Assembly (NCBI GenBank): GCA_016869375.1
Contig: VGEH01000001.1
Coordinates: forward strand, 18,669-82,668
Length of the DNA stretch: 64,000 nt
Direction of reading: 5' to 3'
DNA from: Alphaproteobacteria bacterium
Lineage (GTDB): Bacteria; Pseudomonadota; Alphaproteobacteria; SHVZ01
The translations under genes were made by a program, and so were the position numbers. The notes beneath the pieces are model-generated. The model was not told the DNA's origin, did not search any database, and saw only the letters and a list, made by a program, of their open reading frames with translations. This document shows, piece by piece, positions 4,038 to 60,595 of this stretch (its first letter is position 1; the number at the start of each line of letters is the position of its first letter).

Positions 4038-4276
4038 AGCACGCGAAGAGCAACGCGCTGGATCAACTGGAGCCGCTGCTCGCGGCGATCCGCGACATCG
4101 CCGCCTTCAAGGAGAAGACGCGCGGCGTCTTCTATCTGAAGTCCCGCGCGGCCCTGCATTTCCACGAGGATCCGAAGGGCCTCTTCGCCGACTACCGCAC
4201 GACCGGCGATTGGCAGCGCTTTCCGGTGAATACGAAAGCCGAGCGGGCGGCGCTGCTGAAGGCCCTTCGCCCATAG
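4034..4276 (+). CDS. hypothetical protein (80 aa), translationally coupled to the methyltransferase
   Basis: ATGA start/stop overlap at 4034-4037: MKHAKSNALDQLEPLLAAIRDIAAFKEKTRGVFYLKSRAALHFHEDPKGLFADYRTTGDWQRFPV... No family recognised. Confidence 0.45.
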   Translation: MKHAKSNALDQLEPLLAAIRDIAAFKEKTRGVFYLKSRAALHFHEDPKGLFADYRTTGDWQRFPVNTKAERAALLKALRP

Positions 4277-4277
4277 A

Positions 4278-7349: not shown

Positions 7350-8836
7350 TTCGGCTCGTAGTAGGCCTTCACCAGGTGGTCGAGCAGGCGCACGCCGTAA
7401 GCGGTCGCGCCCTTCGGCGTCACCGCATTGCCTTTGGCCGACCATGCCATGCCGGCGATGTCGAGATGCGCCCAGGGCACGTCGTTGGTGAAGCGCTTCA
7501 TGAACATCGCCGCCTTGCACGAACCGCCGTCGCGCGAGCCCGAGTTCTTCATGTCGGCGATGTCGGAATCCATGCCGCGGTCGTAGCTCTCGGCGAGCGG
7601 CATGCGCCACACGCCCTCGCCCGTCGCCTTGCCCGAAGCGACCAGGCGGTCGGCGAGCTCGTCGTCGGTGACGAAGGCGCCGGCGAATTCATGGCCGAGC
7701 GCGATGATGATGGCGCCGGTGAGCGTCGCGAGGTCGATCATGAAGCGCGGCTTGAAGCGGTCCTGGCAGTACCAGAGCGCATCCGCGAGCACGAGCCGGC
7801 CTTCGGCGTCGGTGTTGTTCACCTCGATGGTTTGGCCGGACATGCTCTTGACCACATCCCCCGGACGCTGGGCGTTGCCGTCCGGCATGTTCTCGACCAG
7901 GCCGACGATGCCGACGACATTCGCCTTGGCCTTGCGGCCGGCGAGGGCGCGCATGAGGCCGATCACGGCGGCGGAGCCGCCCATGTCCCACTTCATGTCC
8001 TCCATGCCCGCGGCGGGCTTCAGCGAGATCCCGCCGGTGTCGAAGGTGACGCCCTTGCCGAGGAAGGCGAGCGGCTTGTCCTTCGACTTGGGATCGCCCT
8101 GCCACTGCATGACGACGAGCTGGCTCTCCTGGGTGCTACCCCGGCCGACGCCAAGCAGTGCGCCCATGCCCAGCTTGGTCATTTCCTTGACGCCGAGGAT
8201 CTCGACCTTGACGCCGAGCGCGCTGAGCGTCTTGCACTGGGCGGCGAGGCTTTTCGGAAAGAGCACATTGCCCGGCTCGGAAACGAGGTCGCGGGCGAAG
8301 AACACCGCGTCGCCGACCTGCTCGAGCTCGCCATAGGCGCGCTGCGCCGTGCGGCTCGCCTCGACATGGATGGCGAGGCGCTGCAGCGTCGGCTTGTCTT
8401 CCGCCTTCTCCTTGGTGCGGTACTTGTCGAAACGGTAGGAACGGAGCTTGGCGCCGAGCGCGAAATGCGCTGCCGCGTTGCCGCCTTCCTCGCCCGGAAG
8501 GTCGAAGGCGACCGCGGCCTCGGCGACGCCTGAATTCGCGAGCTCACCGACCAGCGCGCCGCCCATCGCCTCGATGTCGACGGGCTTCATCTCGCCCTTC
8601 GCCTTGCCGAGACCGATCAGGACGATGCGACTCGCCTCGATGCCGGCTGGCGCCAGGATCGAGAGGATCTGCTTCGCCTTGCCGGAGAAACGGCTGCCGG
8701 ACATCGCGCGGGTGATCGCGCCCTTGGTCTTGCGGTCGAGCTCGCTGGCGCTCGCGCTCAGCTTCTTGCCCTCAGAAACGCCAACGACGAGCGCGCCTTT
8801 CGCCGAGAGTCCCGGCTTGGCGAACGAGATTTTCAT
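7346..8836 (-). CDS. pepA: leucyl aminopeptidase
   Basis: Start at ATG 8836 (MKISFAKPG..) with a GGAGG RBS. Has the M17 peptidase signature NTDAEGRLVLADAL and VGLVENMP. Confidence 0.9.
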   Translation of the reverse strand: MKISFAKPGLSAKGALVVGVSEGKKLSASASELDRKTKGAITRAMSGSRFSGKAKQILSILAPAGIEASRIVLIGLGKAKGEMKPVDIEAMGGALVGELANSGVAEAAVAFDLPGEEGGNAAAHFALGAKLRSYRFDKYRTKEKAEDKPTLQRLAIHVEASRTAQRAYGELEQVGDAVFFARDLVSEPGNVLFPKSLAAQCKTLSALGVKVEILGVKEMTKLGMGALLGVGRGSTQESQLVVMQWQGDPKSKDKPLAFLGKGVTFDTGGISLKPAAGMEDMKWDMGGSAAVIGLMRALAGRKAKANVVGIVGLVENMPDGNAQRPGDVVKSMSGQTIEVNNTDAEGRLVLADALWYCQDRFKPRFMIDLATLTGAIIIALGHEFAGAFVTDDELADRLVASGKATGEGVWRMPLAESYDRGMDSDIADMKNSGSRDGGSCKAAMFMKRFTNDVPWAHLDIAGMAWSAKGNAVTPKGATAYGVRLLDHLVKAYYEPK

Positions 8837-8951
8837 GAGAGATCCCCTCCGGTGTCGCAGTGCCATTAGCCCTCGGCCGTTTCGGCTGTCAATGGCACCG
8901 GCGCCCGTGGCAAATTAGGCCCAACCTCTTCAACCTCGCGGCGGATCATCG

Positions 8952-10601
8952 GTGCTCTCCTTCCTCGCCTCGCCCTGGGCGCGGGTTCTCGTGCTTGCCA
9001 TGACGCTGGCGGCGTTGCTGCCGGGCGCGCTTCGCCTGCCGGCGATCGACCGCGACGAATCCCGCTACGCGCAGGCGACCAAGCAGATGCTGGAGACTAA
9101 GGATTTCGTCCGTATCCGCTTCCAGGACGAGCCGCGCAACAAGAAGCCGGCCGGAATCCACTGGATGCAGGCGGCGGCGGTCTCGCTGATCGCGCCCGAC
9201 TCGAAGACGATCTGGGTCTACCGCCTGCCGTCGATCCTCGGCGTGCTGCTCGCCGTCGGTCTGACCATGGCGATCGCGCGCCGCCTCTACGACCCGATGA
9301 CCGCGACGCTCTCCGGCGGCCTCGTCGGCGCCGCCATGCTCACGCAGATCATGGGCCAGCAGGCGACCACCGACGGCGCGCTGCTCGCCGCCGCCGTCGC
9401 CGCGCAGGGCGCGCTCGCGCTCGCCTATGTGCGCCAGCGACGCGGCGAGCTCGTCAGGCCAGGTCTCGCCTTCGCCTTCTGGGCGGCGGAAGGCATCGCC
9501 ATCCTGATCAAGGGACCGGTGATCCTCGCCGTCACCGCACTCACCGTGATCACGCTCTCGGTCGCCGACAAGGATTGGCGCTGGCTGCGCCTCCTGCGCC
9601 CGCTGCTCGGCATCCCGCTGATGCTGGCGATCGCGAGCCCGTGGTTCATCGCGGTCCAGCTCGCGACCGATGGCGGCTTCGTCAGCGATGCGGTTCGCAA
9701 CGACCTCCTGCCCAAGCTGATCGGCGGGCACGAGAGTCATGGCGCGCGCCCCGGCTACTATTTGGCCCTGGTCAGCGTCACCTTCCTTCCCGCCTCTCTC
9801 GTGCTGTGGCCCGCGCTCAAGGAAGCCTGGAGCGACCGGCTCGACGCCCCGACTCGTGCGCTGCTCGCCTGGGCCTTGCCGGCGTGGTTCCTGTTCGAGG
9901 CCGTGCCGACCAAGCTTCCGCACTACGTCCTGCCGCTCTTCCCTGCTCTGGCGATGCTAGCGGCGCGTCTTCTCGTCCGCACCGCCGATGGCGAGACGAC
10001 GGCGCTCGCGCGGGGCTGGAGCGTCGCCGCGGCGGCGCCCTGGCTCCTTGCCAGCCTCGCGCTGGCCGCCGCCCCGGCGGTGCTGGGATACGCCGTCGAC
10101 CAGCGACTCGATCCGGCCGCGCTCGCGCTCGGGATCGGAGCGATGGCCACGACGCTGATCGCCGCGATTGCCGCAGGCCGAAGGCGGTGGCTCGGCGCGA
10201 CTGTGATATCGGCCCTGGCGACCTGGGCGATCCTGACGACGACCTTCGGCCAGATCCTGCCGCGCCTCGACGCGGTCTGGCTCGGCCGCGAGGCCGCCGA
10301 GACCATCGCGGCGAAGGCACCGGGGACTGCGGCGGCCGACATCGCCGCCTCGGGCTATGCCGAACCGAGCATGGTGTTCGCCGTCGGTACGCCGATCCGC
10401 CTGATCGATGCCGGCCTCGCCGGCCAATTCCTCGCCGAGGCGCCCGGGCGAGTCGCTCTGATCGGCCGCGAGGAGCAGTCGGCTTTCCTGGCCGCCGTAG
10501 CCGCCACGGGCGCCCGGGCCGAAGCGCTCGACACCCTCGCCGGCTTCAACTATTCCAAGGGCCGGTGGACCACGCTGACGCTCTATCGGCGGCACCCGTG
10601 A
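8952..10601 (+). CDS. ArnT/PMT-family (GT39/GT83-like) integral membrane glycosyltransferase
   Basis: 549 aa, ~12 TM segments. Has the ArnT-type motif DRDESRYAQATKQML..DFV..RFQDEPRNKKPAGIHW (DExRYA ... KP...W). Confidence 0.8.
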   Translation: MLSFLASPWARVLVLAMTLAALLPGALRLPAIDRDESRYAQATKQMLETKDFVRIRFQDEPRNKKPAGIHWMQAAAVSLIAPDSKTIWVYRLPSILGVLLAVGLTMAIARRLYDPMTATLSGGLVGAAMLTQIMGQQATTDGALLAAAVAAQGALALAYVRQRRGELVRPGLAFAFWAAEGIAILIKGPVILAVTALTVITLSVADKDWRWLRLLRPLLGIPLMLAIASPWFIAVQLATDGGFVSDAVRNDLLPKLIGGHESHGARPGYYLALVSVTFLPASLVLWPALKEAWSDRLDAPTRALLAWALPAWFLFEAVPTKLPHYVLPLFPALAMLAARLLVRTADGETTALARGWSVAAAAPWLLASLALAAAPAVLGYAVDQRLDPAALALGIGAMATTLIAAIAAGRRRWLGATVISALATWAILTTTFGQILPRLDAVWLGREAAETIAAKAPGTAAADIAASGYAEPSMVFAVGTPIRLIDAGLAGQFLAEAPGRVALIGREEQSAFLAAVAATGARAEALDTLAGFNYSKGRWTTLTLYRRHP

Positions 10602-31300: not shown

Positions 31301-32966
31301 TATGCGTTATCTTGCAACAGGCGTGCTGGCTGCGTCGCTGGCGCTTACGGGCGCCGCGTTCGCCCAGCAGAAGGCCGGAGAACTGACGGTCGCAATGACC
31401 CAGTTCCCCTCGACCCTCAATCCGCATATCGACTCGATGCTGGCCAAGACGATCGTGCTGCACATGACGCAGCGGCCGCTGACCACCTACAACGAGAAAT
31501 GGGAGGCGATCTGCCTCCTCTGCACCGAGCTTCCGACGATCGAGAACGGCAAGGCCAAGCCGGTCGATCTGCCCGACGGCAAGAAGGGCGTGAAGGTCAC
31601 CTACACGATCCACCCGAACGCCAAATGGGGCGACGGCACGCCGGTCACGACCAAGGACGTGATCTTCACCTACGAGGTCGGCAAGAACCCGGACACGGGC
31701 GTTGCCAACATGGAGCAGTTCCGCGAGATCGTCTCGATCGAGGCGCATGACGACAAGAGCTTCACGGTCACCAAGGACAAGCTGAAGTTCACCTACAACC
31801 TCATGAACGACTTCCGGCTGATCCCGGAGCATATCGAGAAGGCGAATTTCGATCCGAAGAACGCCGCCGAGTACAAGAAGAAGACCGCCTTCGACACCAA
31901 CACGACAAACCCCGGCCTCTTCTTCGGCCCCTACAAGATCGCCGAGATCGTGACCTCGAGCCACGTCTCCTTCGTGCCCAACCCCACCTGGTTCGGCGAC
32001 AAGGCGAAGTTCAACCGCATCACATTCAAGGTGATCGAGAACACCGCGGCGATGGAAGCCAACCTGCTCTCGGGCTCGGTCGACTACATCATGGGCGAGC
32101 TCGGCGTCACCATCGACCAGGCGATCGCGTTCCAGAAGCGCCAGGCCGACAAATACAATTACGACTTCAAGCCCGGCCTCGTGTACGAGCACATCGATCT
32201 CAACCTCGACAACCCGCTGCTCAAGGACAAGCGCGTCCGCCAGGCGCTGCTCTACGCGATCAACCGCGAGCAGATCGTCCAGCAGCTCTTCGAGGGCAAG
32301 CAGCCGGTCGCGCACACCAACATCAACCCGCTCGACTGGATCTACCACAAGGACGTCAAGACCTATCGTCACGACGCCAAGCGCGCGGGCGAGCTTCTCG
32401 ACGCCGCCGGCTTCAACGTGATGAAGGACGGCTATCGCCACAACGCCGCCGGCGACCGCCTCCGCTTCGAGCTCATGACCACGGCCGGCAACCGCTCGCG
32501 CGAGCTGGTGCAGCAGGTCCTCCAGAGCCAGTGGAAGGCGGTCGGCGTCGAGATCGTGATCAAGAACGAGCCGGCCCGCGTCTTCTTCGGCGAGACCACG
32601 AAGGAGCGCAAATACACCGGCATGGCGCTGTTCGCCTGGATCTCCTCGCCGGAGAACGTGCCGCTGACGATCCTCTCCTCCAAGCACATCCCGACCAAGG
32701 AGAACAACTGGGCGGGTCAGAACTACACGGGCTACAAGAACCCGGAGATGGACAAGCTGCTCGAGGAAATCGAGGTCGAGCTCGATCGGAACAAGCGGCT
32801 CGCGCTCTGGACCAAGTTCCAGGCGATCTACTCGGAGGACCTGCCGGTCCTGCCGCTGTTCTTCCGCGCCGAGCCCTTCATCGTGCCGAAGTGGCTGAAG
32901 GGCATCGTGCCGACGGGGCACCAGTACGGCACCACGATGTGGTCGCAGAACTGGGCCGCGAACTGA
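31301..32966 (+). CDS. ABC transporter substrate-binding protein, family 5 (peptide/nickel/opine type)
   Basis: 555 aa with a signal peptide (MRYLATGVLAASLALTGAAFAQ). SBP_bac_5 architecture. AT-richer codon usage than neighbours. Confidence 0.85.
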
Positions 32967-33023
32967 CGCGAGACGAGGCCGGCGGAGAAATCCGCCGGCC
33001 TTTCTCTTTCCGGCATATCTCCG

Positions 33024-33980
33024 ATGACACGCTTCCTCTCGCTGCGCTTCCTGCAGGCGCTGATCGTGGTCCTGGTGATGTCGTTCGTCGTCTACGGCCT
33101 GATCGGGCTGATGCCGGGCGATCCGATCGACATCATGCTCTCGGGCGATCCCAACATGACCGCGGCCGACGCGGCGCGGCTGCGCGCGCTCTACGGCGTC
33201 GACAAGCCGATCATCGAGCGCTATTTCGAATGGCTGAGGAACGCCGTCGGCGGCGATTTCGGCTATTCCCGCCAGCATAACCAGCCGGTGCTGCACATCC
33301 TGCTGCCGCGGCTGGTGAACACGCTCTACCTGATGATGGGCGCCTTCCTGATCTCGGTGATCGTCGCGATCCCCGCCGGCGTCTACGCCGCGCGCCACCC
33401 GCGCTCGCTGGTCGACCAGGCGATCAACCTCTTCTGCTTCGCCGGCATCTCGGTGCCGGTGTTCTTCCTCGCCCTCCTGCTGATCATCCTCTTCGCGGTC
33501 CAGCTCGGCATCCTGCCGGCCAGCGGCACGCGCACGGTCGGCGCGCAATCTTCGTTCACCGACCAGCTTCGCTACCTGGCGCTGCCGGTTCTCACGCTTA
33601 CCATCGCCAACATCGCCCAGGTCACCCGCTATGTGCGCTCGGGCATGATCGAGGTCCTGCGCGAGGACTACATCCGGACGGCGCGCGCCAAGGGCGCCGA
33701 CGAGAACCGCGTGGTCTGGAAGCACGCGCTCCGCAACGCCCTGATCCCGACGGTGACGATCATGGCGCTCGAATGCGGCACGCTGCTCTCCGGCGCGCTG
33801 ATCACCGAGACCATGTTCGCCTATCTCGGCATGGGGAAGCTGATCTTCGATTCCATCCTCGCCAACGACTACAACGTGGCGCTGGTCGGCCTGCTCTTCG
33901 CCTGCAGCGTGACGCTGCTCCTGAACCTGATCGCGGACGTGCTCTACGCCGCGCTCGATCCGCGCATCTCCTATCGCTAG
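33024..33980 (+). CDS. ABC transporter permease (DppB/OppB-like)
   Basis: 318 aa, 6 TM segments, and the EAA-like loop in the region YIRTARAKGADENRVVWKHALRNALIP. Confidence 0.85.
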   Translation: MTRFLSLRFLQALIVVLVMSFVVYGLIGLMPGDPIDIMLSGDPNMTAADAARLRALYGVDKPIIERYFEWLRNAVGGDFGYSRQHNQPVLHILLPRLVNTLYLMMGAFLISVIVAIPAGVYAARHPRSLVDQAINLFCFAGISVPVFFLALLLIILFAVQLGILPASGTRTVGAQSSFTDQLRYLALPVLTLTIANIAQVTRYVRSGMIEVLREDYIRTARAKGADENRVVWKHALRNALIPTVTIMALECGTLLSGALITETMFAYLGMGKLIFDSILANDYNVALVGLLFACSVTLLLNLIADVLYAALDPRISYR

Positions 33981-33990
33981 AGGTGACGCG

Positions 33991-34950
33991 ATGGCCACGG
34001 TGATCTCGCCCGAGACCTCGATCCGCTCCGCCGACGACGCGGCGCTGCCGCCGCCGACGCGCCCCGCGCTCCTGATCTGGCGCCGCTTCCGCCGCCACAA
34101 GGGTGCGCTGATCGGCGCCGGGGTGCTGATCTTCCTGGCGCTGCTCGCGATCTTCGCGCCTGCCATCGCCGGATGGCGCGGCCAGGACCACGAGGCGGTC
34201 AACCTGTTCAACCGCTTCCAGCCGGCCTCCGCCGAGCATCCGCTCGGCACCGACGATCTCGGGCGCGACCTGCTGCTGCGCCTGATCTATGGCGGCCGGA
34301 TCTCTCTCTTCGTCGGCCTCGTCACCGCGGTGCTCACCGCCTCGATCGGCACCGTGATCGGGCTGATCTCGGGCTGGTACGGCGGGCGCGTCGACGCCTT
34401 CCTGATGCGCTTCTGCGACGGCTGGATCTCGCTGCCGCTGCTGCCGGTGCTGATCGTGCTCGCCGCCGTCGATCCGACCAAGGTCGGCCTGCCGGCTGCC
34501 ATCGCCAAGTCGCCGGATTTGAGCCTCTATCGCATCGTCCTGATCATCGCGCTGGTCGCCTGGACCACCTCGGCCCGCCTGGTGCGCGGCGTCACGCTGA
34601 CGCTCAAAACCCGAGACTTCGTGCAGGCCGCGGTCGCGCAAGGCGCCTCGACCGCGCGCATCCTCTTCGTCCATATCCTGCCGAACGCGCTGTCGCCGAT
34701 CCTGGTCGCCGCCACGCTCGCCAGCGGCAACATCATCCTGCTGGAATCGACCCTGAGCTTCCTCGGTCTCGGCATCCAGCCGCCGGTGGCGAGCTGGGGC
34801 AACATCCTGACCAACGCCCAGGAGATCATCTGGTCGCAGCCGATGCAGGCGATCTACCCGGGCGTCCTGATCTTCGCCACGGTGATCTCGCTCAACTTCG
34901 TCGGCGACGGCTTGCAGGACGCGTTCGATCCGAGGACAGAGGGGCGATAG
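33991..34950 (+). CDS. ABC transporter permease (DppC/OppC-like)
   Basis: 319 aa, N-terminal OppC_N-like segment, TM bundle. No ATPase genes follow. Confidence 0.85.
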   Translation: MATVISPETSIRSADDAALPPPTRPALLIWRRFRRHKGALIGAGVLIFLALLAIFAPAIAGWRGQDHEAVNLFNRFQPASAEHPLGTDDLGRDLLLRLIYGGRISLFVGLVTAVLTASIGTVIGLISGWYGGRVDAFLMRFCDGWISLPLLPVLIVLAAVDPTKVGLPAAIAKSPDLSLYRIVLIIALVAWTTSARLVRGVTLTLKTRDFVQAAVAQGASTARILFVHILPNALSPILVAATLASGNIILLESTLSFLGLGIQPPVASWGNILTNAQEIIWSQPMQAIYPGVLIFATVISLNFVGDGLQDAFDPRTEGR

Positions 34951-34959
34951 GGCCGCGTC

Positions 34960-35397
34960 TCACTTCTTCGGGCGCGACGGGAGTCTCGGATATTGTTCGT
35001 CCAACGGGACCTTGTACGGACGTCGCTTCGGCCCTGCGTTCATGTCGTACTCGCCGGCAAACAGCAGCGTGAACATCGCGTCCATACTGAACTCGGCAGC
35101 TCTCGCTTCGATGATGTCGATGAGCACGTCGATCGCACGATCCTTCGCAAAGGAGAGGCTTGCCTGGGCCGCCGTTAATCGGATGGGAACGAGCTCGTGA
35201 TCCATGAGGCTAAGAAGCGCTGCTTCTCCTTCTGAGCCTGACTCCTTTAAGGCTTTGGCGACCGCGGCCATTTCGTTTCTGTGCCGGTCGAACGCCTCGA
35301 CGCCCCCCTCTCCGTCTATGGGCGGATAGGATTTTCCGAGCTGAAGGAACGTCCCGACGAGGCTATCCACCGATCGGCCGGACCATTTCGATGTCAT
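34960..35397 (-). CDS. putative immunity protein (145 aa), ATGA-coupled to the upstream nuclease gene
   Basis: ATG 35397 overlaps the stop of the WHH gene. Product MTSKWSGRSVDSLVGTFLQLGKSYPPIDGEGGVEAFDRHRNEMAAVAKALKESGSEGEAALLSLMDHELVPIRL.. is acidic and helical. Low GC (~55%). No family recognised. Confidence 0.5.
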   Translation of the reverse strand: MTSKWSGRSVDSLVGTFLQLGKSYPPIDGEGGVEAFDRHRNEMAAVAKALKESGSEGEAALLSLMDHELVPIRLTAAQASLSFAKDRAIDVLIDIIEARAAEFSMDAMFTLLFAGEYDMNAGPKRRPYKVPLDEQYPRLPSRPKK

Positions 35398-36572
35398 CGC
35401 ACCACTCCTCGCCACTTCAAGATGGTAAGGCCGAACTCTCTCTGAAAGGCGGGATCCTTCGTTTTCAACCACTCGCGGACCGTCATCCCACCCAGTTCCT
35501 CTCGCTTGAACGAGTAGAAATCGCTGATCCTGCGGTGATGCACGACGGGGACGCGAACGATATTGTCCGTCGAGTGAACGTCCCATCCCTCGGCGCTTCC
35601 GAACTCTCTCTCACGAATATGGTGCCATTCATATCCCGGTCCAGCGGGGTTCCTTCTTCGGAACTCGTCGAAGGATCCGTAGTCCTCAACCCGCACCCTT
35701 GGATGCATTTCGGAGAGTGTCTTAGGCTCGTCGAAGTATGTGACGACCTCGGGGAACCCCTCTTCTAAGAGCACCGATGCCACAAGCCCCCAGGTCGATC
35801 GTCTAAGGGCAAAGGCTGCTGCGGGCGCGATACGCGTGATCATCTGCCGAACCAGTTGCCCGCGCGTCTTGGGTGTTCCCTCCACCGGCGGAAGGTCGGT
35901 CGGAGGAGGCTTTGGCGGATCGAAAGGATCCCTGGCGCCGCCGGCGAGGTGAAGCAATCCGCGCGATGATCGCGCTACAAGATCATCGAGCCTCGCAAGA
36001 GCATGATCCGCCCTGCTGAGTTCTTCCTCGGTGACCGGCCGATCGAGGTCCGAAACCTCGTCGCCGCTTCCATCCGTCCACTGCCCACCGTTGGGATGGC
36101 CGCGCGGCACGCGCGGCTGGTTCGGGTCGTATTTGCGTTCGAGCGCTTTGCGCTGGCGCCAGGCGTCGACGTTGATGCGCGGGTTGCCGCGGCGATGCGC
36201 CGGCCCCCAGCTCAGGTACCGGCCACAGGCGTTGCGGAAGGTCGTGAAGTAGTCGGGCGGCGGGAACGCGACGGCTTCGGCGAGTTCGGCGGCATAGGCG
36301 CGGTCGCCGGCGGCGAGCGCGTCGACCGCCATCTGCAGGATCGGCATGCGGTCGCCGAGACGGAAGTCGCGGCCGTAGACCGACTGCATCGCCTCTTCAA
36401 GGACCGAAAGGTCTACCAGCCAGGGGATCGGCGGTTGGCGGCCATTCGGCCGGATGCCGCCTACCGGCGAGGTCCAGAGGCGGATGAGGTCGCCGTCGAT
36501 CCAGCAACGCTGCACGACGCCGCGGACAAAATCCGGGCGGTCGTGCGCGCCCTCGCGGGTGCGCCCGTGCAT
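35394..36572 (-). CDS. WHH-type HNH/EndoVII-fold nuclease domain protein (candidate polymorphic toxin)
   Basis: Start at ATG 36572 with a GGAG RBS (the GTG at 36626 is an alternative). The C-terminal ~90 aa contain GYEWHHIREREFGSAEGWDVHSTDNIVRVPVVHHRRISDFY (the W-H-H ... N ... H-H pattern of the WHH nuclease family). The ~280-aa N-terminal region has no recognised domain. Low GC; AGA/AGG/TTA codons. Confidence 0.55.
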   Translation of the reverse strand: MHGRTREGAHDRPDFVRGVVQRCWIDGDLIRLWTSPVGGIRPNGRQPPIPWLVDLSVLEEAMQSVYGRDFRLGDRMPILQMAVDALAAGDRAYAAELAEAVAFPPPDYFTTFRNACGRYLSWGPAHRRGNPRINVDAWRQRKALERKYDPNQPRVPRGHPNGGQWTDGSGDEVSDLDRPVTEEELSRADHALARLDDLVARSSRGLLHLAGGARDPFDPPKPPPTDLPPVEGTPKTRGQLVRQMITRIAPAAAFALRRSTWGLVASVLLEEGFPEVVTYFDEPKTLSEMHPRVRVEDYGSFDEFRRRNPAGPGYEWHHIREREFGSAEGWDVHSTDNIVRVPVVHHRRISDFYSFKREELGGMTVREWLKTKDPAFQREFGLTILKWRGVVR

Positions 36573-36786
36573 CGATCCAACTCCATCTGCGGAAAAGAAA
36601 AGGGGCCGGGGGTCCGTCGGACCCACCTAGCCCCAGTTAGCACGCATCCTGTCAAAGACGCGGGGTTTTGTCAGCTAAATTCTCGTATAAAAATCCGCAT
36701 TATTTTTCGACGCCCCTCTTGGTCTCCGCGAAGCGGGCCGGCCTCAAGGGGTTAGCGAGGGTCGCCGGGAAGGCTATGATCGCCCG

Positions 36787-37149
36787 GTGATCCGGCTCCT
36801 GCTCCCCCTCGCGGCCCTCATCCAGGTCGCCGCAACCGCCCTTCCCGCCTCGGCGCAGATCGGGCCGGCGACGCATGGGGCGTGCTTCCTGGTGCGCAAC
36901 ATGGCGCCCTTCTCGCTCGCCGGACGCGTCGTCATGAAGTCGCGGCAGCGCTACACCTTCGTGCTGCAGAAGGGCCAGAGCCGGCGGGCCTGTCTGGAAG
37001 GCGAGATGCATCCGGGCGACAAGGTCGAGCTGGTGATCACGGTTTTCGCGATCCCGCTCTTCGTCTGCTACACGCAGGTCGACCAGCCGATCGAGCTCTA
37101 CGCCGCCCGCCAGGAAGAGGGCTACAAGTACTACGCCAACTGCCGCTAG
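36787..37149 (+). CDS. small secreted hypothetical protein (120 aa, 4 Cys)
   Basis: GTG start. Signal peptide MIRLLLPLAALIQVAATALPASA|QI. High GC3, native-looking. Divergent from the nuclease gene across an AT-rich spacer. Confidence 0.5.
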   Translation: MIRLLLPLAALIQVAATALPASAQIGPATHGACFLVRNMAPFSLAGRVVMKSRQRYTFVLQKGQSRRACLEGEMHPGDKVELVITVFAIPLFVCYTQVDQPIELYAARQEEGYKYYANCR

Positions 37150-38378
37150 CTGGCGCGCAGCACCTTCGGCGAGAGCAGCGCCAGCGCCGCGGTCAGGCCG
37201 CCGGCCGCTCCCACCCACATCGTCGCCGACATGCCAATGAATCCTGCGAGCGGCCCTGCGATCAGCGCACCCAGCGGCAGCGCCAGGCCCGTCGCCACCT
37301 GGAAGGTGGCATTGGCGCGGCCCAGCACCTCGAGCGGCAGCACGCGCTGGCGCAGGCTGATGGCGTGGATCAGGAAGATGCTGAGGAAGGCGTCGCCGAT
37401 GAGCTGATGCGCGACGAGGCTCGGGACCGCGAACGGGCCGGCGAGTTCCGAGAGCGGGATCAGCAGCGCCGCCGCATTGCCGATGGCAAGCGCCGAGATA
37501 AGCGTCGGGCCGAGGCCGAGACGCCCCGCCATCCTCTCCGCGACCAGCGCGCCACAGAATGAGCCGATGCCGCCGACGCTGATGACCAGCCCGATCACCA
37601 GCGGAAGAAGACCGAGCGTCTCGAGCGCCAGGATCATGTAGAGCGTGTGGAAGAAGCCACCGAACAGCATCATCAGTGTTTCGGCCGCGAGCAGCCGCGC
37701 GACAACAGGCTCGCCGAGACAGGCGCGGAAGCCGATGCCGATATCGGCGAGCACGCGGCTCGCCGCCCCGGGCGCGGCGGCCGGCGCCTCGACGGCGCGG
37801 ATGCGGCTCAGCATCAGCGCCGACCACAGATACGAAGCCGCGTCGACGATGACGGCGAGCGGTGCGGACATGACCTGGATCAGGATGCCGGCGAGCCCCG
37901 GTCCGACGCTCTCGGCGATCGAATCCGTCGCCTCGAGCTTGGCATTGCCCTCGACCAGATGCGGCTTGCCGACCAGCGCCGGCAGGTAGGTGTTGTCGGC
38001 GATGCGGAACAGCGCCGAGGCGGCGCCGACCGCAGCGGCGATGGCATAGAGCTGCGGCATCGAGAGATCGCCCGACCATGCCGCCAGCGGAATCGTGAGA
38101 ATGAGCGCGGCGCGGACGAGGTCGGCGGCGATCAGCAACGGCCGCTTCGCATGCCGGTCGACCGGCCCGCCGGCGACGAGCCCGACGATGACGCCGGGCA
38201 GCACGCCGAGCGCCGAGAGGATCGCGATCTCGCTCGGGCTCGCCTGGATCGTCAGGATCGCGATCATCGGCAGCGCCGTCCGCGTGACGCGGCTGCCCAT
38301 CGCGCTCAAGGACTGCGCGGCCCACAGCTTCAGGAAATCGGGATGGCGCCAAAGCCCGCCCGACGGCCACCACGGCAT
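37146..38378 (-). CDS. MFS transporter
   Basis: 12 TM segments, N-terminal MFS motif region (..GPVDRHAKRPLL..). Start at ATG 38378 (TTG 38438 is an alternative). Confidence 0.8.
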   Translation of the reverse strand: MPWWPSGGLWRHPDFLKLWAAQSLSAMGSRVTRTALPMIAILTIQASPSEIAILSALGVLPGVIVGLVAGGPVDRHAKRPLLIAADLVRAALILTIPLAAWSGDLSMPQLYAIAAAVGAASALFRIADNTYLPALVGKPHLVEGNAKLEATDSIAESVGPGLAGILIQVMSAPLAVIVDAASYLWSALMLSRIRAVEAPAAAPGAASRVLADIGIGFRACLGEPVVARLLAAETLMMLFGGFFHTLYMILALETLGLLPLVIGLVISVGGIGSFCGALVAERMAGRLGLGPTLISALAIGNAAALLIPLSELAGPFAVPSLVAHQLIGDAFLSIFLIHAISLRQRVLPLEVLGRANATFQVATGLALPLGALIAGPLAGFIGMSATMWVGAAGGLTAALALLSPKVLRAS

Positions 38379-38440
38379 CTGGCTCGATCCCCCGGATAAG
38401 ACGCCGTGCTGTCTCGCCGATTGCGGAGGTCGGCGCAAGC

Positions 38441-39552: not shown

Positions 39553-40579
<1,027 letters not shown>

Positions 40580-40587
<8 letters not shown>

Positions 40588-41545
40588 GGGCGTAGAGCCA
40601 GCAGGAGGCTTGGGTGACGCCGGTGTCGAGGAGCTCCGGCCGTTCGACCCGGCAGCGGTCGAAGACATGCGGGCAGCGCGGGTTGAAGGCGCAGCCCGGC
40701 GGGATCTCGGTCAGGCGCGGCATCGAGCCTTCGATCTGGTCGAGCCGTTCCTTCTCGTCGTTGATCTTCGGGATGGAGCCCATCAGCCCGTGGCTGTAGG
40801 GATGCTTCGCTTCCTTGATCACCGAGCGCACCGGGCCGATCTCAGCAATGCGGCCGGCATACATGACGGCGACCCGGTCGGCGGTCTCGGCGATCACGCC
40901 CATGTCGTGGGTGATCAGCATGATCGCGGTGCCGTGGTCGCGGCAGAGGCGCTTGAGCAATGCGATGATCTGCGCCTGGATCGAGACGTCGAGTGCGGTG
41001 GTCGGCTCGTCGGCGATCACCAGCTTGGGATTGACGCAGAGAGCGAGCGCGATGACGACGCGCTGGCGCATGCCGCCCGAGAACTGGTGCGGGTAGTGGT
41101 CGATGCGGCGCTCGGCCGCCGGGATGCCGACCTCGTGCAGGAGCTCGAGCGCGCGCGTGCGCGCCTGGGTCGGCGACATGTCGGTATGGGTCTGGATCGT
41201 CTCGACCAGCTGGCGGCCGACCGAATAGAGCGGGTTCAGGCTGGTCAGCGGATCCTGGAACACGGCGCCGATCTGCTTGCCGCGGATCTTGCGCATCTCC
41301 TCGTAGGGGAGGTTGTCGATGCGGCGGCCCATGAGCCGGATCTCGCCGGCCGCGATGCGTCCGGGCGGCTCCAGCAACCCGATGATCGCGGTACCGGTCA
41401 GCGACTTGCCGGCGCCGGACTCGCCGACCACGCCCAGCACCTCGCCTTCGGCGATCTGGAGGGAGATGTCATCGACCGCGACGAGCGTGCCGCGGCGCGT
41501 CGGGAACTCGATGCGGAGGTGCTCGACCTCGAGAAGAGCAGCCAT
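40580..41545 (-). CDS. oligopeptide/dipeptide ABC transporter ATP-binding protein (OppD/DppD-like)
   Basis: [25 protein letters not shown] and PPGCAFNPRCP. Confidence 0.85.
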
Positions 41546-42477
41546 CAGCGGAGCTTCGGGTTGAGAGCATCGCGGAGCCAGTCACCGAGCAGGTTGACCG
41601 ACAGCACCAGGATGACGAGGAACAGGCCAGGGAAGATCGCCATCCACCACTCGCCGGAGAAAAGGAAGTTGTTGCCGATGCGGATCAGCGTGCCGAGCGA
41701 AGGCTCGGTCGGCGGCACGCCGACGCCGAGGAAGCTCAAGGTGGACTCCGTCAGGACGGCGATGCCGAGGCCCAGCGTGCCGATCACCAGCACCGGCCCC
41801 ATCACGTTCGGCAGCACGTGCCGGAACATGATCAGCATCGGGTGCAGCCCAATGACGCGCGCCGCCTGGACGTATTCCTTGTTCTTCTCGACCAGGGTCA
41901 GGCCGCGCACGGTGCGGGCGTACTGGATCCAGGTCGACAGCCCGATCGCCAGCACGATGACGTATACCGCGGCCTTGTCGTGGACGTCGCGCGGCAGGAT
42001 CCCGCGGGCGACGCCGTCGATCAGCAGCACGATCAGGATCGCCGGGAAGCTGAGCTTCACGTCGGCGACGCGCATGATCACCGAGTCGGTGACGCCGCCG
42101 ACATAGCCGGCGATGAGGCCGAGTGCGACGCCCATGGTCAGCGCGAGGGCGACCGAGGCGAAGCCGACCAGCAGCGACACGCGGGCGCCGAGAATGATGG
42201 TCGAGAACACGTCGCGGCCCTGATCGTCGGTGCCGAGGAGGTAGGTGAGCTTGCCGCCCTGCACCCAGGCCGGCGGCAGGAAGGCGTCCATCAGGTTGAG
42301 GGTCGCGACCTCGTAGGTGTTGTGCGGCACGATCCAGGGGGCGAAGGCCGCCGAAACCATGAACAGCATGGTCAGCGCGAAGGCGACCACCACGGTCGGC
42401 GAGCGTTTGAAGCTGTAATAGACGTCCGAGGCGAGGAAGCGCCGGACGAGGTCGGTGAAGTTGCGCCAGATCGCCAT
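41545..42477 (-). CDS. ABC transporter permease (DppC/OppC-like)
   Basis: 310 aa TM protein. Start overlaps the upstream permease-gene stop region. Confidence 0.85.
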   Translation of the reverse strand: MAIWRNFTDLVRRFLASDVYYSFKRSPTVVVAFALTMLFMVSAAFAPWIVPHNTYEVATLNLMDAFLPPAWVQGGKLTYLLGTDDQGRDVFSTIILGARVSLLVGFASVALALTMGVALGLIAGYVGGVTDSVIMRVADVKLSFPAILIVLLIDGVARGILPRDVHDKAAVYVIVLAIGLSTWIQYARTVRGLTLVEKNKEYVQAARVIGLHPMLIMFRHVLPNVMGPVLVIGTLGLGIAVLTESTLSFLGVGVPPTEPSLGTLIRIGNNFLFSGEWWMAIFPGLFLVILVLSVNLLGDWLRDALNPKLR

Positions 42478-42481
42478 GGGA

Positions 42482-43465
42482 TCAGTGAGCGCTCACCGAC
42501 CGCTCGACCCGGAGCCTCGGATCGACGGCGAAGTAGAGCAGGTCGACGACCAGGTTGATGAGGACGAAGAAGAGCGCGACCAGGACGAGGTAGCTGCTCA
42601 TCACGGGAACGTCGACGAACTGGATCGCCGTGATGAAGAGGAAGCCCATGCCCGGCCACTGGAACACCGTCTCGGTGATGATGGCGAAGGCGATCAGGCC
42701 GCCGATCTGAAGGCCGGCAATGGTGATCACCGGCACCAGCGTGTTCTTGAGCGCGTGGCCGAAATTGATCGCGCGGTTGGTCAGCCCCCGGGCGCGCGCG
42801 AACTTGATGTAGTCCGAGCGCAGCACTTCCAGCATCTCCGAGCGCACGAGCCGCATGATCAGCGTGGTCTGGAAGAGACCGAGCGTGATCGAGGGCAGGA
42901 TCAGCGCCTTGAGCCCGCTCGCGGTGAGGAAGCCGGTCGACCAGAATCCGAGCTGCACCGTCTGGCCGCGGCCGAAGGATGGAAGCCAACCCAGCAGCAC
43001 GGCGAAGATCAGGATCAGCAGGATGCCGATCAGGAAGGTCGGCAGCGACACGCCGATCAGGGACACCGTCAGCATGAAGCGGCTCATCGCGCCGTGCCGA
43101 TGCAGGCCGGTGTAGACGCCGGCGGGCACGCCGATGAAGAGCGCGAAGAGCGCGGCGACGAGGACGAGCTCCAGCGTCGCCGGCAGGCGCTCGGCGATGA
43201 TCTGGGCGACCGGCGTGCCGATACGGAACGAGAAGCCGAAATTGCCGGTCATCAGGTTCTTCAGGAACACCAGGAACTGTACGTAGAAGGGCCGGTCGAG
43301 GCCGAGCGTGCGACGGAGCGCTTCGCGCTCGGCGGCGCTCGCATCCTGCGCCACCATCTGGTTGATGGGGTCGCCCATGTACTGGAAGAGGGCGAAGGCG
43401 ACGAACGCCACCGCCGCCATCACCAGGATGGACTGGAGAGCACGACGAACAATGTAGGCGAACAT
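42482..43465 (-). CDS. ABC transporter permease (DppB/OppB-like)
   Basis: 327 aa, 6 TM segments, and the motif region YIKFARARGLTNRAINFGHALKN. Confidence 0.85.
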   Translation of the reverse strand: MFAYIVRRALQSILVMAAVAFVAFALFQYMGDPINQMVAQDASAAEREALRRTLGLDRPFYVQFLVFLKNLMTGNFGFSFRIGTPVAQIIAERLPATLELVLVAALFALFIGVPAGVYTGLHRHGAMSRFMLTVSLIGVSLPTFLIGILLILIFAVLLGWLPSFGRGQTVQLGFWSTGFLTASGLKALILPSITLGLFQTTLIMRLVRSEMLEVLRSDYIKFARARGLTNRAINFGHALKNTLVPVITIAGLQIGGLIAFAIITETVFQWPGMGFLFITAIQFVDVPVMSSYLVLVALFFVLINLVVDLLYFAVDPRLRVERSVSAH

Positions 43466-57062: not shown

Positions 57063-58007
57063 ATGATACGCATGGTGCTCGTCCGCCTCGCGCTGACGAT
57101 CCCGATCCTGCTGGGCGTTTCGATCGTCGCCTTCGGGCTGATGCGGATGCTGCCAGGCGACTTCGCCGAGGCCGCGGCCGGCACCACCTCGGTCTCGGCC
57201 GAGGTCCTGGCGACGACGCGCGCCCAGCTCGGCCTCGACCGGCCGCTCTGGGAGCAGTACGGGATCTGGCTTAAGGGTGTGCTCACCGGCGATCTCGGCC
57301 GCTCCTTCGCCACCAAGCGGCCGGTGACGACCGAGCTGCTGCCGAGGCTCGCCGTCACCGCCGAGCTGACGCTGATGGCCGGCCTCATCGCCATGATCAT
57401 CGGCGTCGCCACGGGCCTCGCCTCGGCGCGGCTGCGCGGCCGCACCGACTGGCTGGTGCGCGGCTGGAACAGCCTCTTGCTGGCGGTGCCGAACTTCGTC
57501 GTCGCCACGCTGATCGTGCTGGTCTTCGGGCTCTACTTCCCGATGATCGGAATCTTCAACTACGTGCCCTTCGCCAAGGACCCGATAGGCAACATCGCGA
57601 GCCTGCTGCTGCCGGCGCTCTCGCTCGGCCTCACCGTCTCGGTCACGATCTCCGAGAACACGCGCGCCGCCGTGCTCGAGGTCTCCAGCCAGGACTACGT
57701 GATGGTCGCCCGCGCCAAGGGCCTGCTCGCCCGCACCATCCTCGGCAACTACCTCGTGCGCAACGCGCTGACGCCGGTGATCACGGTGACCGGCCTGCAG
57801 CTCGCCGCCCTCCTCGGCGGCTCCATCCTGATCGAGACCATCTTCACCATTCCGGGCATGGGCCAGTATCTCTTCGACTCCGTCACGCGGCGCGACTATC
57901 CGGTCATCCAGGCGATCGTGCTGGTCTCTTCGACCATCGTGCTGCTGACCAACGTCCTGGTCGACATCGCCTATGCGCGGGTCGATGCGCGGGTGTCCTA
58001 TGAGTGA
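57063..58007 (+). CDS. ABC transporter permease (DppB-like)
   Basis: 314 aa, 6 TM segments, motif region YVMVARAKGLLARTILGNYLVRNAL. Confidence 0.85.
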   Translation: MIRMVLVRLALTIPILLGVSIVAFGLMRMLPGDFAEAAAGTTSVSAEVLATTRAQLGLDRPLWEQYGIWLKGVLTGDLGRSFATKRPVTTELLPRLAVTAELTLMAGLIAMIIGVATGLASARLRGRTDWLVRGWNSLLLAVPNFVVATLIVLVFGLYFPMIGIFNYVPFAKDPIGNIASLLLPALSLGLTVSVTISENTRAAVLEVSSQDYVMVARAKGLLARTILGNYLVRNALTPVITVTGLQLAALLGGSILIETIFTIPGMGQYLFDSVTRRDYPVIQAIVLVSSTIVLLTNVLVDIAYARVDARVSYE

Positions 58008-58833
58008 CGCGCCCGCGCCTAAGAAGCACCATCGCGGCCAGACGATGGTCTTCATCGGGCTTGCCATGCTGGCGGTGCTGCTGCTGATCGTCGTCTTCGG
58101 CCCGTCGATCGCCCCCTACAGCCCGTCCAAGACCTCGCCCAACTCGCTCGACGGACCGACCGCCATGCACTGGCTCGGCACGGACTCCATCGGACGAGAC
58201 CTGCTCAGCCGGCTGATCGTCGGCGGCCGCGGCACGCTGTTCATCACCTTCGTCGCCGTGGCGCTCGCGCTCGCCGCCGGCCTCGTTCTCGGCCTCACCT
58301 CCGGCTACATGGGCGGCAAGGTCGATCTCATCGTCATGCGTATTCTCGACGTGATCTTCGCCTTCCCGGTCTTCCTGCTGGCGATCGCCGTGGTTGCGGC
58401 GCTAGGACCGACGGTGAGAAACCTCATCCTCACTATCGCCATCGTCTACACGCCGGCGATGGCGCGCGTGGTGCGAGGTCCCGTGCTCAGCGTCAAGCGC
58501 TGGGACCACGTGGAAGCCGCGCGCAGCGTCGGCGTCGGCGAATTCGCCATCGCCATCCGCCACGTGCTGCCGATGGTGATCTCGCCGATCCTGGTGCAGA
58601 CCAGCCTGATCCTCGCCAACACCATCTTCACCGTGACCGCGCTCTCCTTCCTGGGCCTTGGGCCCCCGCCGCCGGATCCCAACTGGGGCAGCATGCTGGC
58701 CGAGGCGCGGCAGTTCATGGAGCTGGCGCCGCTGACCGTGATCGGCCCCGCCGTCGCCATCATCTTCGCCTCGCTGACCTTCATCGTGCTCGCCAACGGC
58801 CTCCGCGAGCTCCTCGACGTGGGGAGCCGCTGA
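58000..58833 (+). CDS. ABC transporter permease (DppC-like)
   Basis: ATG 58000 (MSDAPAPKKHHRG..) overlaps the upstream stop by 8 nt. OppC_N-like region followed by a TM bundle. Confidence 0.8.
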   Translation: MSDAPAPKKHHRGQTMVFIGLAMLAVLLLIVVFGPSIAPYSPSKTSPNSLDGPTAMHWLGTDSIGRDLLSRLIVGGRGTLFITFVAVALALAAGLVLGLTSGYMGGKVDLIVMRILDVIFAFPVFLLAIAVVAALGPTVRNLILTIAIVYTPAMARVVRGPVLSVKRWDHVEAARSVGVGEFAIAIRHVLPMVISPILVQTSLILANTIFTVTALSFLGLGPPPPDPNWGSMLAEARQFMELAPLTVIGPAVAIIFASLTFIVLANGLRELLDVGSR

Positions 58834-59630
58834 TGCTCGAGGTCCGCGACCTCACCGCCGAGTTCATCCGCGAAGGCGAGGTCCTGCGCGTGGTTCAGCG
58901 CATCGGCTTCGACATCGCCGCGGGCGAGGCGGTGGGCTTCGTCGGCGAGTCGGGATCGGGCAAGAGCGTCACCGCGCGCGCGGTCATGCGCCTCGCCCCG
59001 GAAGGCTCCTCGATCCGCTGGGGCGGGCGCATCCTGTTCAAGGGCCAGGATCTGCTGGCCCTCTCCGAGCGCGAGATGACCGATGTCCGCGGCCGGCGCA
59101 TCGCCATGGTCTTCCAGGACCCGATGGCCTCGCTCAACCCGGTGATGACCGTGGGCCAGCAGATCGACGACATGCTGATGCGCCATATGAGCCTCTCCGG
59201 TGCGCAGGCGCGCAAGCGCACGGTCGAGCTGCTCGGCCTCGTCGGCATCCGCGATCCCGAGCACCGCGCCGACGACTATCCGCACCAGTTCTCCGGCGGC
59301 ATGCGCCAGCGCGTCCTGATCGCCATCGCCGTCTCCTGCGAGCCCGACCTGCTGATCGCCGACGAGCCGACCACGGCGCTCGACGTCACCGTGCAGGCGC
59401 AGATCCTCCGCCTCCTGATGCGCCTCAGGCGCGAGCTCGGCATGGCGCTGATGCTGATCACCCATGATTTCGGCGTCATCGCCGGCATGGTCGAGCGCGT
59501 CTATGTGATGAACAACGGCGAGATCGTCGAGTCCGGCGCCATCGACACGCTGTTCGCCGCACCGAAGCATCCCTACACCCAGGCGCTGCTCGCCGCCGTG
59601 CCGCGCATCGGGACGAGGCGCTCGGCATGA
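58833..59630 (+). CDS. oligopeptide/dipeptide ABC transporter ATP-binding protein
   Basis: [25 protein letters not shown] and [11 protein letters not shown]. Confidence 0.85.
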
Positions 59631-60595
59631 CCGCGCCCCTGCTCCAGGTCCGCGACCTCTCGGTCGTCTTCCCGCCGCGCCGCGGCCGGCCGCCGGTGCG
59701 CGCGGTCGACCGCGTCTCCTTCGATATCGAGCCCGGCCGCACGGTCGGCCTCGTTGGCGAGTCCGGATCGGGCAAAACCACCACCGGCCGCGCCATCCTG
59801 CAGCTGCAGCCGATCACCGGCGGCTCGGTCAGCCTGCTCGGCCGCGAGCTCACCACCATGTCGCGCGCCGATGTGCGGGCCATGCGCCGGCACATGCAGT
59901 TCGTGCTGCAGAACCCCTATTCGAGCCTGCATCCGCGCATGCGCGTGGCCGACATCCTGGCCGAGCCGCTGAAGGTGCATCGCTCCGTGGCGAAGGCCGA
60001 GATCCCCGACCGCGTCGCCGAGCTGATGCGGCTGGTCAACATGGATCCGGCGGTGGTGAAGCGCTATCCGCATGAATTCTCCGGCGGCCAGCGCCAGCGC
60101 ATCGTCATCGCCCGCGCGCTCGCGGTGAACCCGGATTTCGTCGTCTGCGACGAGCCGGTCTCCGCCCTCGACGTGCGAACGCAGAAGCAGATCGTCGACC
60201 TGCTGCACGATCTGCAGACCAAGCTGAAGCTCTCATACCTGTTCATCGCGCATGACCTCGCCATCGTGCGCGCGGTGGCACACCGCGTCGCGGTCATGTA
60301 TGGCGGGCGCATCGTCGAGCTCGGCGACGCCGACGATGTCTACGAGAACCCGGTCCATCCCTATACGAAGAACCTGCTGGAAGCGGTGCCGATCCCCGAC
60401 CCCGCCCGCCAGCGCGCCAAGCTCGCCGCGGCGACGCCCGATCCCAACTTCCGCGGCCGCGACGGCGAGACGGGCAAATGCGTCTTCGGCCACGATCATT
60501 CGGCCGACCACTCGCCCGAATGGCACGAGGTCGGCCCCAACCACGCCGTCTCCTGCAAATTCTGGCCGCCGGGCGTGACGCCCCTCAGAAGCTGA
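59627..60595 (+). CDS. oligopeptide/dipeptide ABC transporter ATP-binding protein (with C-terminal extension)
   Basis: GESGSGKTTT, FSGGQRQRIVIARAL and VCDEPVSALD. Confidence 0.85.
   Translation: MTAPLLQVRDLSVVFPPRRGRPPVRAVDRVSFDIEPGRTVGLVGESGSGKTTTGRAILQLQPITGGSVSLLGRELTTMSRADVRAMRRHMQFVLQNPYSSLHPRMRVADILAEPLKVHRSVAKAEIPDRVAELMRLVNMDPAVVKRYPHEFSGGQRQRIVIARALAVNPDFVVCDEPVSALDVRTQKQIVDLLHDLQTKLKLSYLFIAHDLAIVRAVAHRVAVMYGGRIVELGDADDVYENPVHPYTKNLLEAVPIPDPARQRAKLAAATPDPNFRGRDGETGKCVFGHDHSADHSPEWHEVGPNHAVSCKFWPPGVTPLRS

Follow-up and report, generated by a model that had tools for sequence, protein, structure and literature searches.

A probable polymorphic nuclease toxin with a DUF2019 partner, diversified by cassette replacement at a junction motif in freshwater Alphaproteobacteria

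The locus described here raises the question of what a pair of overlapping genes encodes, and how the pair came to lie beside the permease gene of a peptide importer in a 64 kb stretch of alphaproteobacterial DNA (contig VGEH01000001.1; hereafter the window, with coordinates counted from its first letter). The pair consists of a 392 amino acid (aa) open reading frame (ORF) at 35394..36572 and a 145-aa ORF at 34960..35397, both on the reverse strand. An initial annotation had proposed a nuclease toxin of the WHH clade with an immunity-like partner, carried on a horizontally acquired low-GC islet whose insertion displaced the ATPase genes of the importer. The analysis reported here, in which all functional statements are drawn from sequence, predicted structure and genomic context, indicates that the pair is probably a polymorphic toxin-immunity system, in which a nuclease toxin is translated together with a DUF2019 immunity protein and variants arise by replacement of a cassette at a conserved junction motif. 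Comparison loci and contigs are labelled L001–L251 and homologous proteins carry P-numbers; site A is the permease-gene locus of the window.

Both ORFs were found where they had been predicted, in agreement with the source gene calls, and the identical 392-aa protein was called on two metagenome contigs; the C-terminal sequence that had been quoted for it is present. The toxin gene starts with an ATG at 36572, preceded by a GGAG ribosome-binding site (36581–36584), and the N-terminal residues MHG are kept in an alignment of 27 homologues. The stop codon of the toxin gene overlaps the start codon of the smaller gene (ATGA), and this order, toxin gene first with a DUF2019 partner overlapping by 4 nucleotides (nt), was found at all ten related loci examined. 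A database search yielded 44 full-length relatives of ∼380–420 aa, which are unannotated and originate from freshwater alphaproteobacterial metagenome-assembled genomes. Relatives in general derive mostly from uncultured organisms, the exception being distant carriers of a shorter form described below.

Alignment of the full-length relatives divided the protein into four regions. A highly conserved N-terminal carrier domain (aa 1–146, of which ∼aa 22–146 are folded; 36135..36572, −) is followed by the near-invariant ERKYDPNQPRVPRGHPDGGQWT and, after a length-variable linker, by a more divergent C-terminal domain. In the window the junction motif reads DPNQPRVPRGHPNGGQWT (aa 149–166; 36075..36128, −) and is predicted to be disordered, with a predicted local distance difference test score (pLDDT) below 50; the residues P, Q, P, R, V, P, G, G, G and W are invariant in the family. 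The linker (aa 167–228; 35889..36074, −) is poorly conserved and comprises one predicted helix and then a proline-rich disordered stretch, with pLDDT values of 39–53 over aa 205–226. The C-terminal toxin domain (aa 229–392, 164 aa; 35397..35888, −) is modelled as a helical bundle and a ββα core at aa 313–354 (nt 35511–35636). The toxin and its carrier domain match no annotated family: the 392-aa protein and its fragments gave no match in Pfam, even at E ≤ 10, and none in NCBIfam or PADLOC, and the only PHROG signal was to an HNH endonuclease family over aa 310–372 (E = 0.064).

The composition of the pair breaks within the toxin gene. The initial annotation had treated the entire block as low in GC; this holds for ∼34955–36084, comprising the immunity gene, the C-terminal domain and the linker, and does not hold for codons 1–166, which are host-like (GC 0.71; third-position GC content (GC3) 0.87; no AGA or AGG codons, 0%). 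A GC content of 0.57–0.61 was confined to ∼34800–36000, rising to 0.69 at 36000–36600. GC3 is 0.64–0.71 in the linker (0.64), C-terminal domain and small ORF, compared with 0.89–0.94 in the flanking genes. The use of codons that are otherwise rare was confirmed for the cassette, in which AGA and AGG make up 36% of arginine codons against 4% in flanking genes, TTA occurs at 3/34 against 1/326 and TTT at 4/17 against 1/92. The compositional break coincides with the motif in all seven lineage loci compared (7/7), with a GC3 of 0.58–0.72 in the cassette against 0.81–0.89 in the N-terminal domain.

The same boundary was apparent as an exchange between strains. Two metagenome contigs (L127 and L057) encode a second permease (perm2) that is 98–99% identical in protein sequence to that of the window, and their nucleotide identity to the window is 0.86–0.97 in this gene and 0.33–0.57 across 34955–36084. 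On L127, the only one of the two that reaches the N-terminal domain, identity returns to 0.82–0.90 from 36085, with the jump from 0.54 to 0.84 at ∼36085 falling on the junction motif. The breakpoints of the cassette therefore lie at ∼34955 (both contigs) and ∼36085 (L127), the motif forming the right-hand one, and the low-GC block with its rare codons coincides with the exchangeable unit of linker, toxin domain and immunity gene (34955..36084). Across loci the N-terminal domain is 66–84% identical, the C-terminal domain 30–66% and the DUF2019 partner 31–62% or undetectable, while flanking proteins at syntenic loci are 75–94% identical to those of the window. For the syntenic loci taken by themselves the values are 66–70% for the N-terminal domain, 31–66% for the C-terminal domain and 60% or undetectable for the immunity protein. 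The toxin tip and its partner immunity gene are thus swapped wholesale between near-identical strains at the junction motif, and at present only the part downstream of the motif moves horizontally.

The 145-aa ORF (34960..35397, −), previously described as belonging to no recognisable family, is a DUF2019 protein (PF09450, E = 6.5e-10, 39.4 bits against a cut-off of 23.3 bits, residues 26–111), and its supposed acidity is marginal at 21 D+E against 19 K+R. A weak HEAT_2 match was also obtained, together with a match to PDB 2i9c (RPA1889 of Rhodopseudomonas palustris) at E = 0.0037. Like DUF2019 proteins and 2i9c, the partner is all-helical and HEAT-like, scoring above the curated cut-off, but it is ∼25 residues longer at the C-terminus. 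All partner ORFs examined at related loci are DUF2019-like. Two copies each were found at L001, in Rhodopseudomonas telluris (L038) and in Nitratireductor thuwali (L039), and Nitratireductor luteus (L034, 7902–10803) carries five tandem DUF2019 paralogues behind a broken toxin gene, which seems to be interrupted, as its ORF ends at 8444 and similarity runs on to 8626. On a further metagenome contig (L062, 1–2380), where perm2 is 98.6% identical to that of the window, most of the toxin gene has been deleted, leaving a remnant of ∼62 aa, and the DUF2019 gene has been kept; from its sequence this allele represents an immunity-only 'cheater' state.

In one protein from a Logan assembly (P0043, 363 aa) the toxin frame runs into a HEAT-like segment resembling the DUF2019 partner; the continuous frame may reflect a natural fusion of toxin and immunity protein or, alternatively, a frameshift or an artefact of assembly.

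When the motif, linker and C-terminal domain were searched together as a profile, at least 720 proteins without a Pfam domain were recovered, most of them 200–350 aa in length with short, differing N-termini. Their hosts include Rhodopseudomonas, Bradyrhizobium, Pseudolabrys, Nitratireductor and Aliihoeflea, in addition to many metagenomes. No match to a short-form member was found by tblastn in collections of phages and plasmids. The consensus of the family reads GYDxHHIVE...NLVRIP..KHW.I..WY, and in the full-length alignment H318, E321, N337 and P342 are invariant, with H317 and H346 near-invariant.

Membership of the WHH clade, as had been proposed from the residues Trp-His-His, was not borne out. 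The signature of that clade is a Trp before the His dyad, followed by 'L, H, HxG' (PMC3482391, Table 2). The PF14414 profile gave no match at E ≤ 10 with the full protein or with C-terminal fragments, nor in any of 83 members of the family scanned with Pfam (0/83). The residue preceding HH is I, V, W, L, D, T, R or Q among 129 relatives, so that the Trp is a peculiarity of the subgroup to which the window belongs; the 'H, HxG' tail is absent, and past N337 only H346 is conserved. Tox-AHH (PF14412; motif '[AG]HH, N, H, H, Y') matched 3/83 members with a best E of 0.19; of its motif, HH, N, one H and an aromatic residue are present and [AG] and the second H absent. DUF2380 matched 6/83.

An AlphaFold model of aa 229–392, built from 83 sequences, was obtained with a pLDDT of 93.2 and a predicted template modelling score (pTM) of 0.85, and shows a helical bundle followed by strand, strand and helix. 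The model places HH at the end of strand 1, N337 ahead of strand 2 and H346 within the helix, as in the ββα-metal arrangement of HNH enzymes. This predicted core, with its His dyad, Asn, helix His and subsequent aromatic residue, resembles those of Tox-AHH and Tox-WHH, and like them the family is restricted to toxin-like contexts; unlike those families, the window family has an invariant Glu three residues after HH (HHIxE), an invariant Pro after strand 2 and no 'HxG'. The cores of the colicin E7 and E9 DNases have a similar HH...N...H pattern, and the 'YE[WL]HH ... DNI[VR]V.. P..H' spacing of the family resembles theirs, with sequence similarity that is not significant. TseN, a DNase effector of the type VI secretion system (PDB 9j9w, PMC12574953), differs: similarity is below the usual significance at 9% identity, and its VgrG/PAAR delivery and immunity fold are unlike those considered here. 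Taken together, weak but concordant evidence makes it likely that the C-terminal domain is a His-Me-finger (ββα-metal, HNH-like) nuclease.

The N-terminal domain was predicted by AlphaFold2 to consist of four strands and five helices (pLDDT ∼86–91). It is restricted to this lineage and is rare, with 24 matches among 1.84 billion representative proteins. For aa 1–228, searches of Pfam, NCBIfam, PHROG and PADLOC were all negative and no structural match was found, and similarity to MuF or to any phage family was not detectable in Pfam or PHROG. As had been noted initially, the region lacks a known trafficking domain: no signal peptide was found, and the domains of type V, VI and VII secretion systems, Rhs, PAAR, LXG and MuF were all absent from the toxin protein. 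Four distant homologues (P0135, P0137, P0138 and P0140, from L050 and L051) join the domain, through a degenerate motif HPRxPAGSPxGxGG[QE]F, to a different, unannotated, non-HNH C-terminus, and the domain therefore behaves as a carrier which is able to bear more than one cargo. These four proteins have no same-strand downstream partner gene. A candidate assignment of the alternative C-terminus of P0137 and P0140 as a GH108-type muramidase was dropped, as it had no support in Pfam, and the half-length proteins P0037 and P0039–P0042 were rejected as further alternative C-termini because they are truncated or frameshifted copies.

The junction motif was also found in viruses. A degenerate DNA pattern for QPRVPxGxxxGG[QE][WF] was searched in IMG/VR contigs and identified at least 120 viral stretches, where by estimate fewer than one would be expected by chance. 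The viral form, (K/R)(Y/F)xP(D/N)QPRVPxGxPxGG(Q/E)(W/F), occurs at no fewer than 138 in-frame sites of viral ORFs (contigs L041–L049 and L133–L251), typically with 100–300 residues after it, and several contigs hold two or three such ORFs. Within these contigs, portal proteins are joined through the motif to variable C-terminal extensions, among them a CdiA-CT RNase A domain. A domain scan of 107 motif-bearing ORFs detected a portal domain in 29 (24 Phage_portal, 3 Portal_Mu, 1 Phage_portal_3 and 1 Portal_T4) and MuF in 2/107; the toxin-type domains were CdiA-CT RNase A (12/107), ADP-ribosyltransferase exoenzyme (6/107), Barnase-type ribonuclease (2/107) and ART (1/107). Judged by these sequences, the motif seems to be a junction of general use for toxin domains attached to portals, and its link with portal proteins hints at capsid-associated delivery. 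A search of the literature with the motif sequence found nothing relevant, and the motif appears to be undescribed in the study of MuF-type phage toxins by Jamet et al. (2017, PMC5576092), as the word 'motif' is absent from its main text.

Polymorphic toxin-immunity systems are defined by behaviours seen here, namely cassette exchange, immunity arrays, a toxin-deleted allele and a translationally coupled partner (PMC3482391), and the view of the pair as one such system with a co-translated downstream partner is supported by the exchange at the junction, the DUF2019 arrays and the ten overlaps. As in the polymorphic toxins of Zhang, Aravind and colleagues (2012, PMC3482391), which include CdiA-CT/CdiI, Rhs-CT and the colicin E-type DNase/Im pairs, a conserved N-terminal part is followed by a short junction and a variable C-terminal toxin, the cognate immunity gene lies directly downstream, close strains differ by replacement of the cassette at the junction, and orphan immunity arrays occur. 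The differences are that the junction here is QPRVPxGxPxGGQW and not VENN or PxxxxDPxGL, that there is no known trafficking domain, that the immunity protein is DUF2019 and not SUKH, Im or CdiI, and that a single toxin family occupies the locus. In the mechanism that we propose, the carrier domain (aa 1–146) is joined by the disordered motif and the variable linker to a 164-aa toxin domain that most likely cuts nucleic acid in the manner of HNH or colicin-type DNases. The DUF2019 protein would be made from the same transcript by ATGA-coupled translation and, judged by its context, most likely neutralises its own toxin variant by binding it. Everything downstream of the motif is replaced as a unit by recombination between strains, and close relatives would therefore carry mutually non-protective toxin and immunity variants.

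Several observations weigh against this interpretation. A Foldseek structure search with the toxin protein returned nothing, and no relevant or significant PDB match came from profiles of the full family, of the C-terminal module or of the 53-residue core. An hhalign comparison of the core with the colicin E9 DNase, for which an approximate E9 sequence was used, aligned only the YELHH stretch, at 2.7% probability. None of the links to known nuclease families reaches significance, and neither Pfam nor NCBIfam gave a match. No signal peptide or secretion domain was found, nor any secretion-system genes within ∼10 kb, in the window or at syntenic loci, so that a role between cells is suggested only by genomic behaviour; profile and structure searches likewise did not tie the N-terminal domain to a defined secretion or delivery system. 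The toxin variants at this locus all belong to one family, which amounts to co-diverging replacement with no mix of unrelated toxin folds. Finally, the searchable literature on DUF2019, PF09450 and RPA1889 assigns DUF2019 no function and no immunity role.

The absence of export signals and secretion genes would also fit an intracellular two-gene module of the toxin-antitoxin or abortive-infection kind, in which the nuclease stays inside the cell, DUF2019 acts as a labile antitoxin and variability arises from conflict with phages. Most family members are short (200–350 aa) and cytosolic-looking and form two-gene modules among housekeeping genes, one such module lies inside a head-tail cluster resembling a gene transfer agent (GTA), and the conserved 5' leader of the toxin gene, with a terminator-like hairpin, suggests tight regulation. 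The C-terminal tail has also been counted in favour of this explanation. However, no match was found to a PADLOC defence model; tandem runs of as many as five immunity genes, and remnants that keep only the immunity gene, are what inter-bacterial toxin loci typically show; and a conserved carrier with a cassette-exchange junction is the architecture of polymorphic toxins. Moreover, on phage portal proteins this junction is followed by toxin domains of the CdiA and ADP-ribosyltransferase types. We consider an intracellular module unlikely. The tail in question, LGGhoPREWLRG... (aa ∼358–392; nt 35397–35501), follows the ββα core and weakly matches the C-terminal toxin-binding domain of Xre/MbcA/ParS antitoxins (PF09722) in 14/83 members, with a best E of 0.0039.

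A conventional type II toxin-antitoxin module was set aside as a class. Type II antitoxins have a DNA-binding domain, are usually encoded upstream and autoregulate, and the toxins are small. Here the partner is downstream and HEAT-like, without a DNA-binding domain (helix-turn-helix, ribbon-helix-helix and AbrB domains gave no Pfam match in it), and the toxin is a 392-aa multidomain protein.

A refinement of the favoured account, the polymorphic toxin with its DUF2019 immunity protein, would make the toxin capsid-borne: the motif would mark portal-attached proteins, the N-terminal domain would be a portal- or head-binding adaptor, functionally like MuF or gp7, and tailed particles would deliver the nuclease. 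The portal and MuF domains in the viral ORFs, with toxin-type domains after the motif, point in this direction. So does R. telluris (L038, 1–16903; GCA_042432815.1), in which the major capsid gene of an RcGTA-like head-tail cluster is immediately followed by a short-form toxin gene (8001–8903) and two DUF2019 genes; a second motif ORF (4060–4794) belongs to the same cluster. On three GTA-like contigs (L042, L047 and L049) motif ORFs are beside or fused to portal genes. Delivery of toxins by phage heads has a precedent in the MuF toxins (PMC3482391, PMC5576092), whose toxin domains are likewise borne on head- or portal-associated proteins; the window protein, by contrast, has no MuF or portal domain, lies outside any prophage or GTA cluster and shares only the junction motif. 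No portal, capsid or terminase homologue was found in the window or within ∼10 kb at syntenic loci, the N-terminal domain has no detectable similarity to MuF or a phage family, most short-form loci examined (L030, L034 and L039) are in ordinary chromosomal contexts, and the motif could be a generic recombination or linker junction. Capsid-borne delivery is accordingly rated as rather improbable. A broader version is a similarly long shot: QPRVPxGxPxGGQW would be a general tag for toxin cargo in the heads of tailed particles, tethering toxins to the portal in phages, while in this lineage a stand-alone N-terminal adaptor would load the nuclease into GTA or phage particles that discriminate between strains, and DUF2019 would serve as antidote.

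That the pair is a selfish HNH endonuclease of the homing type and its accessory gene, with no connection to toxin-immunity biology, is highly improbable; this reading was rejected on context, since the pair has a fixed intergenic position outside any host gene or intron, is always accompanied by a co-diverging DUF2019 gene, and has its cassette replacement bounded by a protein-coding junction motif.

The history of the locus was read from its synteny. The pair is flanked by the permease gene and by a divergently transcribed, putatively secreted 120-aa ORF (orf120), beyond which come genes for a major facilitator superfamily (MFS) transporter, for PfkB and for the ATPases of the neighbouring importer; the same placement was found at L001, L004, L007 and L009/L010. 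A paralogous pair occupies a second conserved chromosomal site, and genomes carry two or three copies. It had been proposed that the insertion displaced the ATPase genes of the importer. The set of substrate-binding protein (SBP) and two permeases at 31301..34950 does lack adjacent ATPase genes, which the other two peptide importers of the window (∼39553–43444, −; 57063–60574, +) possess. However, outgroups whose perm2 is 60–65% identical to that of the window (L059, L060, L061, L063 and L098) have the order PRT, AP_endonuc2, SBP, perm1, perm2, then PfkB ... ATPase, ATPase, with perm2 ending ∼20–240 nt from the convergent PfkB gene and with no toxin gene, immunity gene, orf120 or MFS gene. As these outgroups lack both the pair and ATPase genes at the site, the ATPase-less state predates the insertion, and displacement is refuted. 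The description of the pair as horizontally acquired is correct in that outgroup loci with the same synteny lack it, and imprecise in that the pair is fixed at this site across a lineage in which flanking proteins differ by 7–25%. The module is an insertion ancestral to this freshwater alphaproteobacterial lineage, placed between the permease gene and PfkB, and it removed no ATPase genes.

The region upstream of the toxin gene is carried with it. The AT-rich spacer noted initially was confirmed, ∼36621–36720 being the 100 nt of lowest GC content (48%) in the 64 kb window. A leader or promoter region of ∼130 nt (36573..36700, −) is conserved at both paralogous sites (L001, ∼2040–2164; L005 and L008, ∼9875–10000) despite different upstream neighbours. 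It contains two TTGACA boxes 17 nt apart and an inverted repeat, GGATTTTT...AAAAATCC (GGATTTTT / AAAAYCC), as well as a GC-rich hairpin (36602–36634) and a U-tract (36593–36601), after which comes the ribosome-binding site. The hairpin was predicted from the consensus and individually in the window, L001 and L009, and the stem in the window differs in sequence and still pairs. No Rfam family matched the leader and a promoter scan gave no sigma-70 consensus. From its sequence, the leader is possibly an attenuator or a regulated leader.

The divergent 120-aa ORF (36787–37149, +) has a signal-peptide-like N-terminal segment and belongs to no family. It is 83–94% conserved at every site A locus and is absent from the toxin-less outgroups and from the second site, and it may have arrived with the insertion. 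The MFS transporter gene (37146–38438), which lies between orf120 and PfkB in the window and likewise occurs at L001, L004 and L007, is missing from L009/L010 and from the outgroups, and the intergenic site has therefore gathered more than one insertion.

Polymorphic toxin-immunity systems are a well-known kind; what is new here is a toxin family without a Pfam or NCBIfam profile, its carrier domain, a junction motif with a link to portal proteins, and a proposed immunity role for DUF2019. The HNH-like toxin family of at least 720 proteins has not been modelled in either database, and DUF2019, which has a crystal structure (2i9c) and no assigned role, may now be considered a candidate family of immunity proteins. 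For the window itself the record is corrected, in that the insertion did not give rise to its orphan ABC importer. The junction motif provides a simple sequence handle for finding head-associated toxins, and its link with portal proteins is a lead on the delivery of a toxin that carries no secretion signal.

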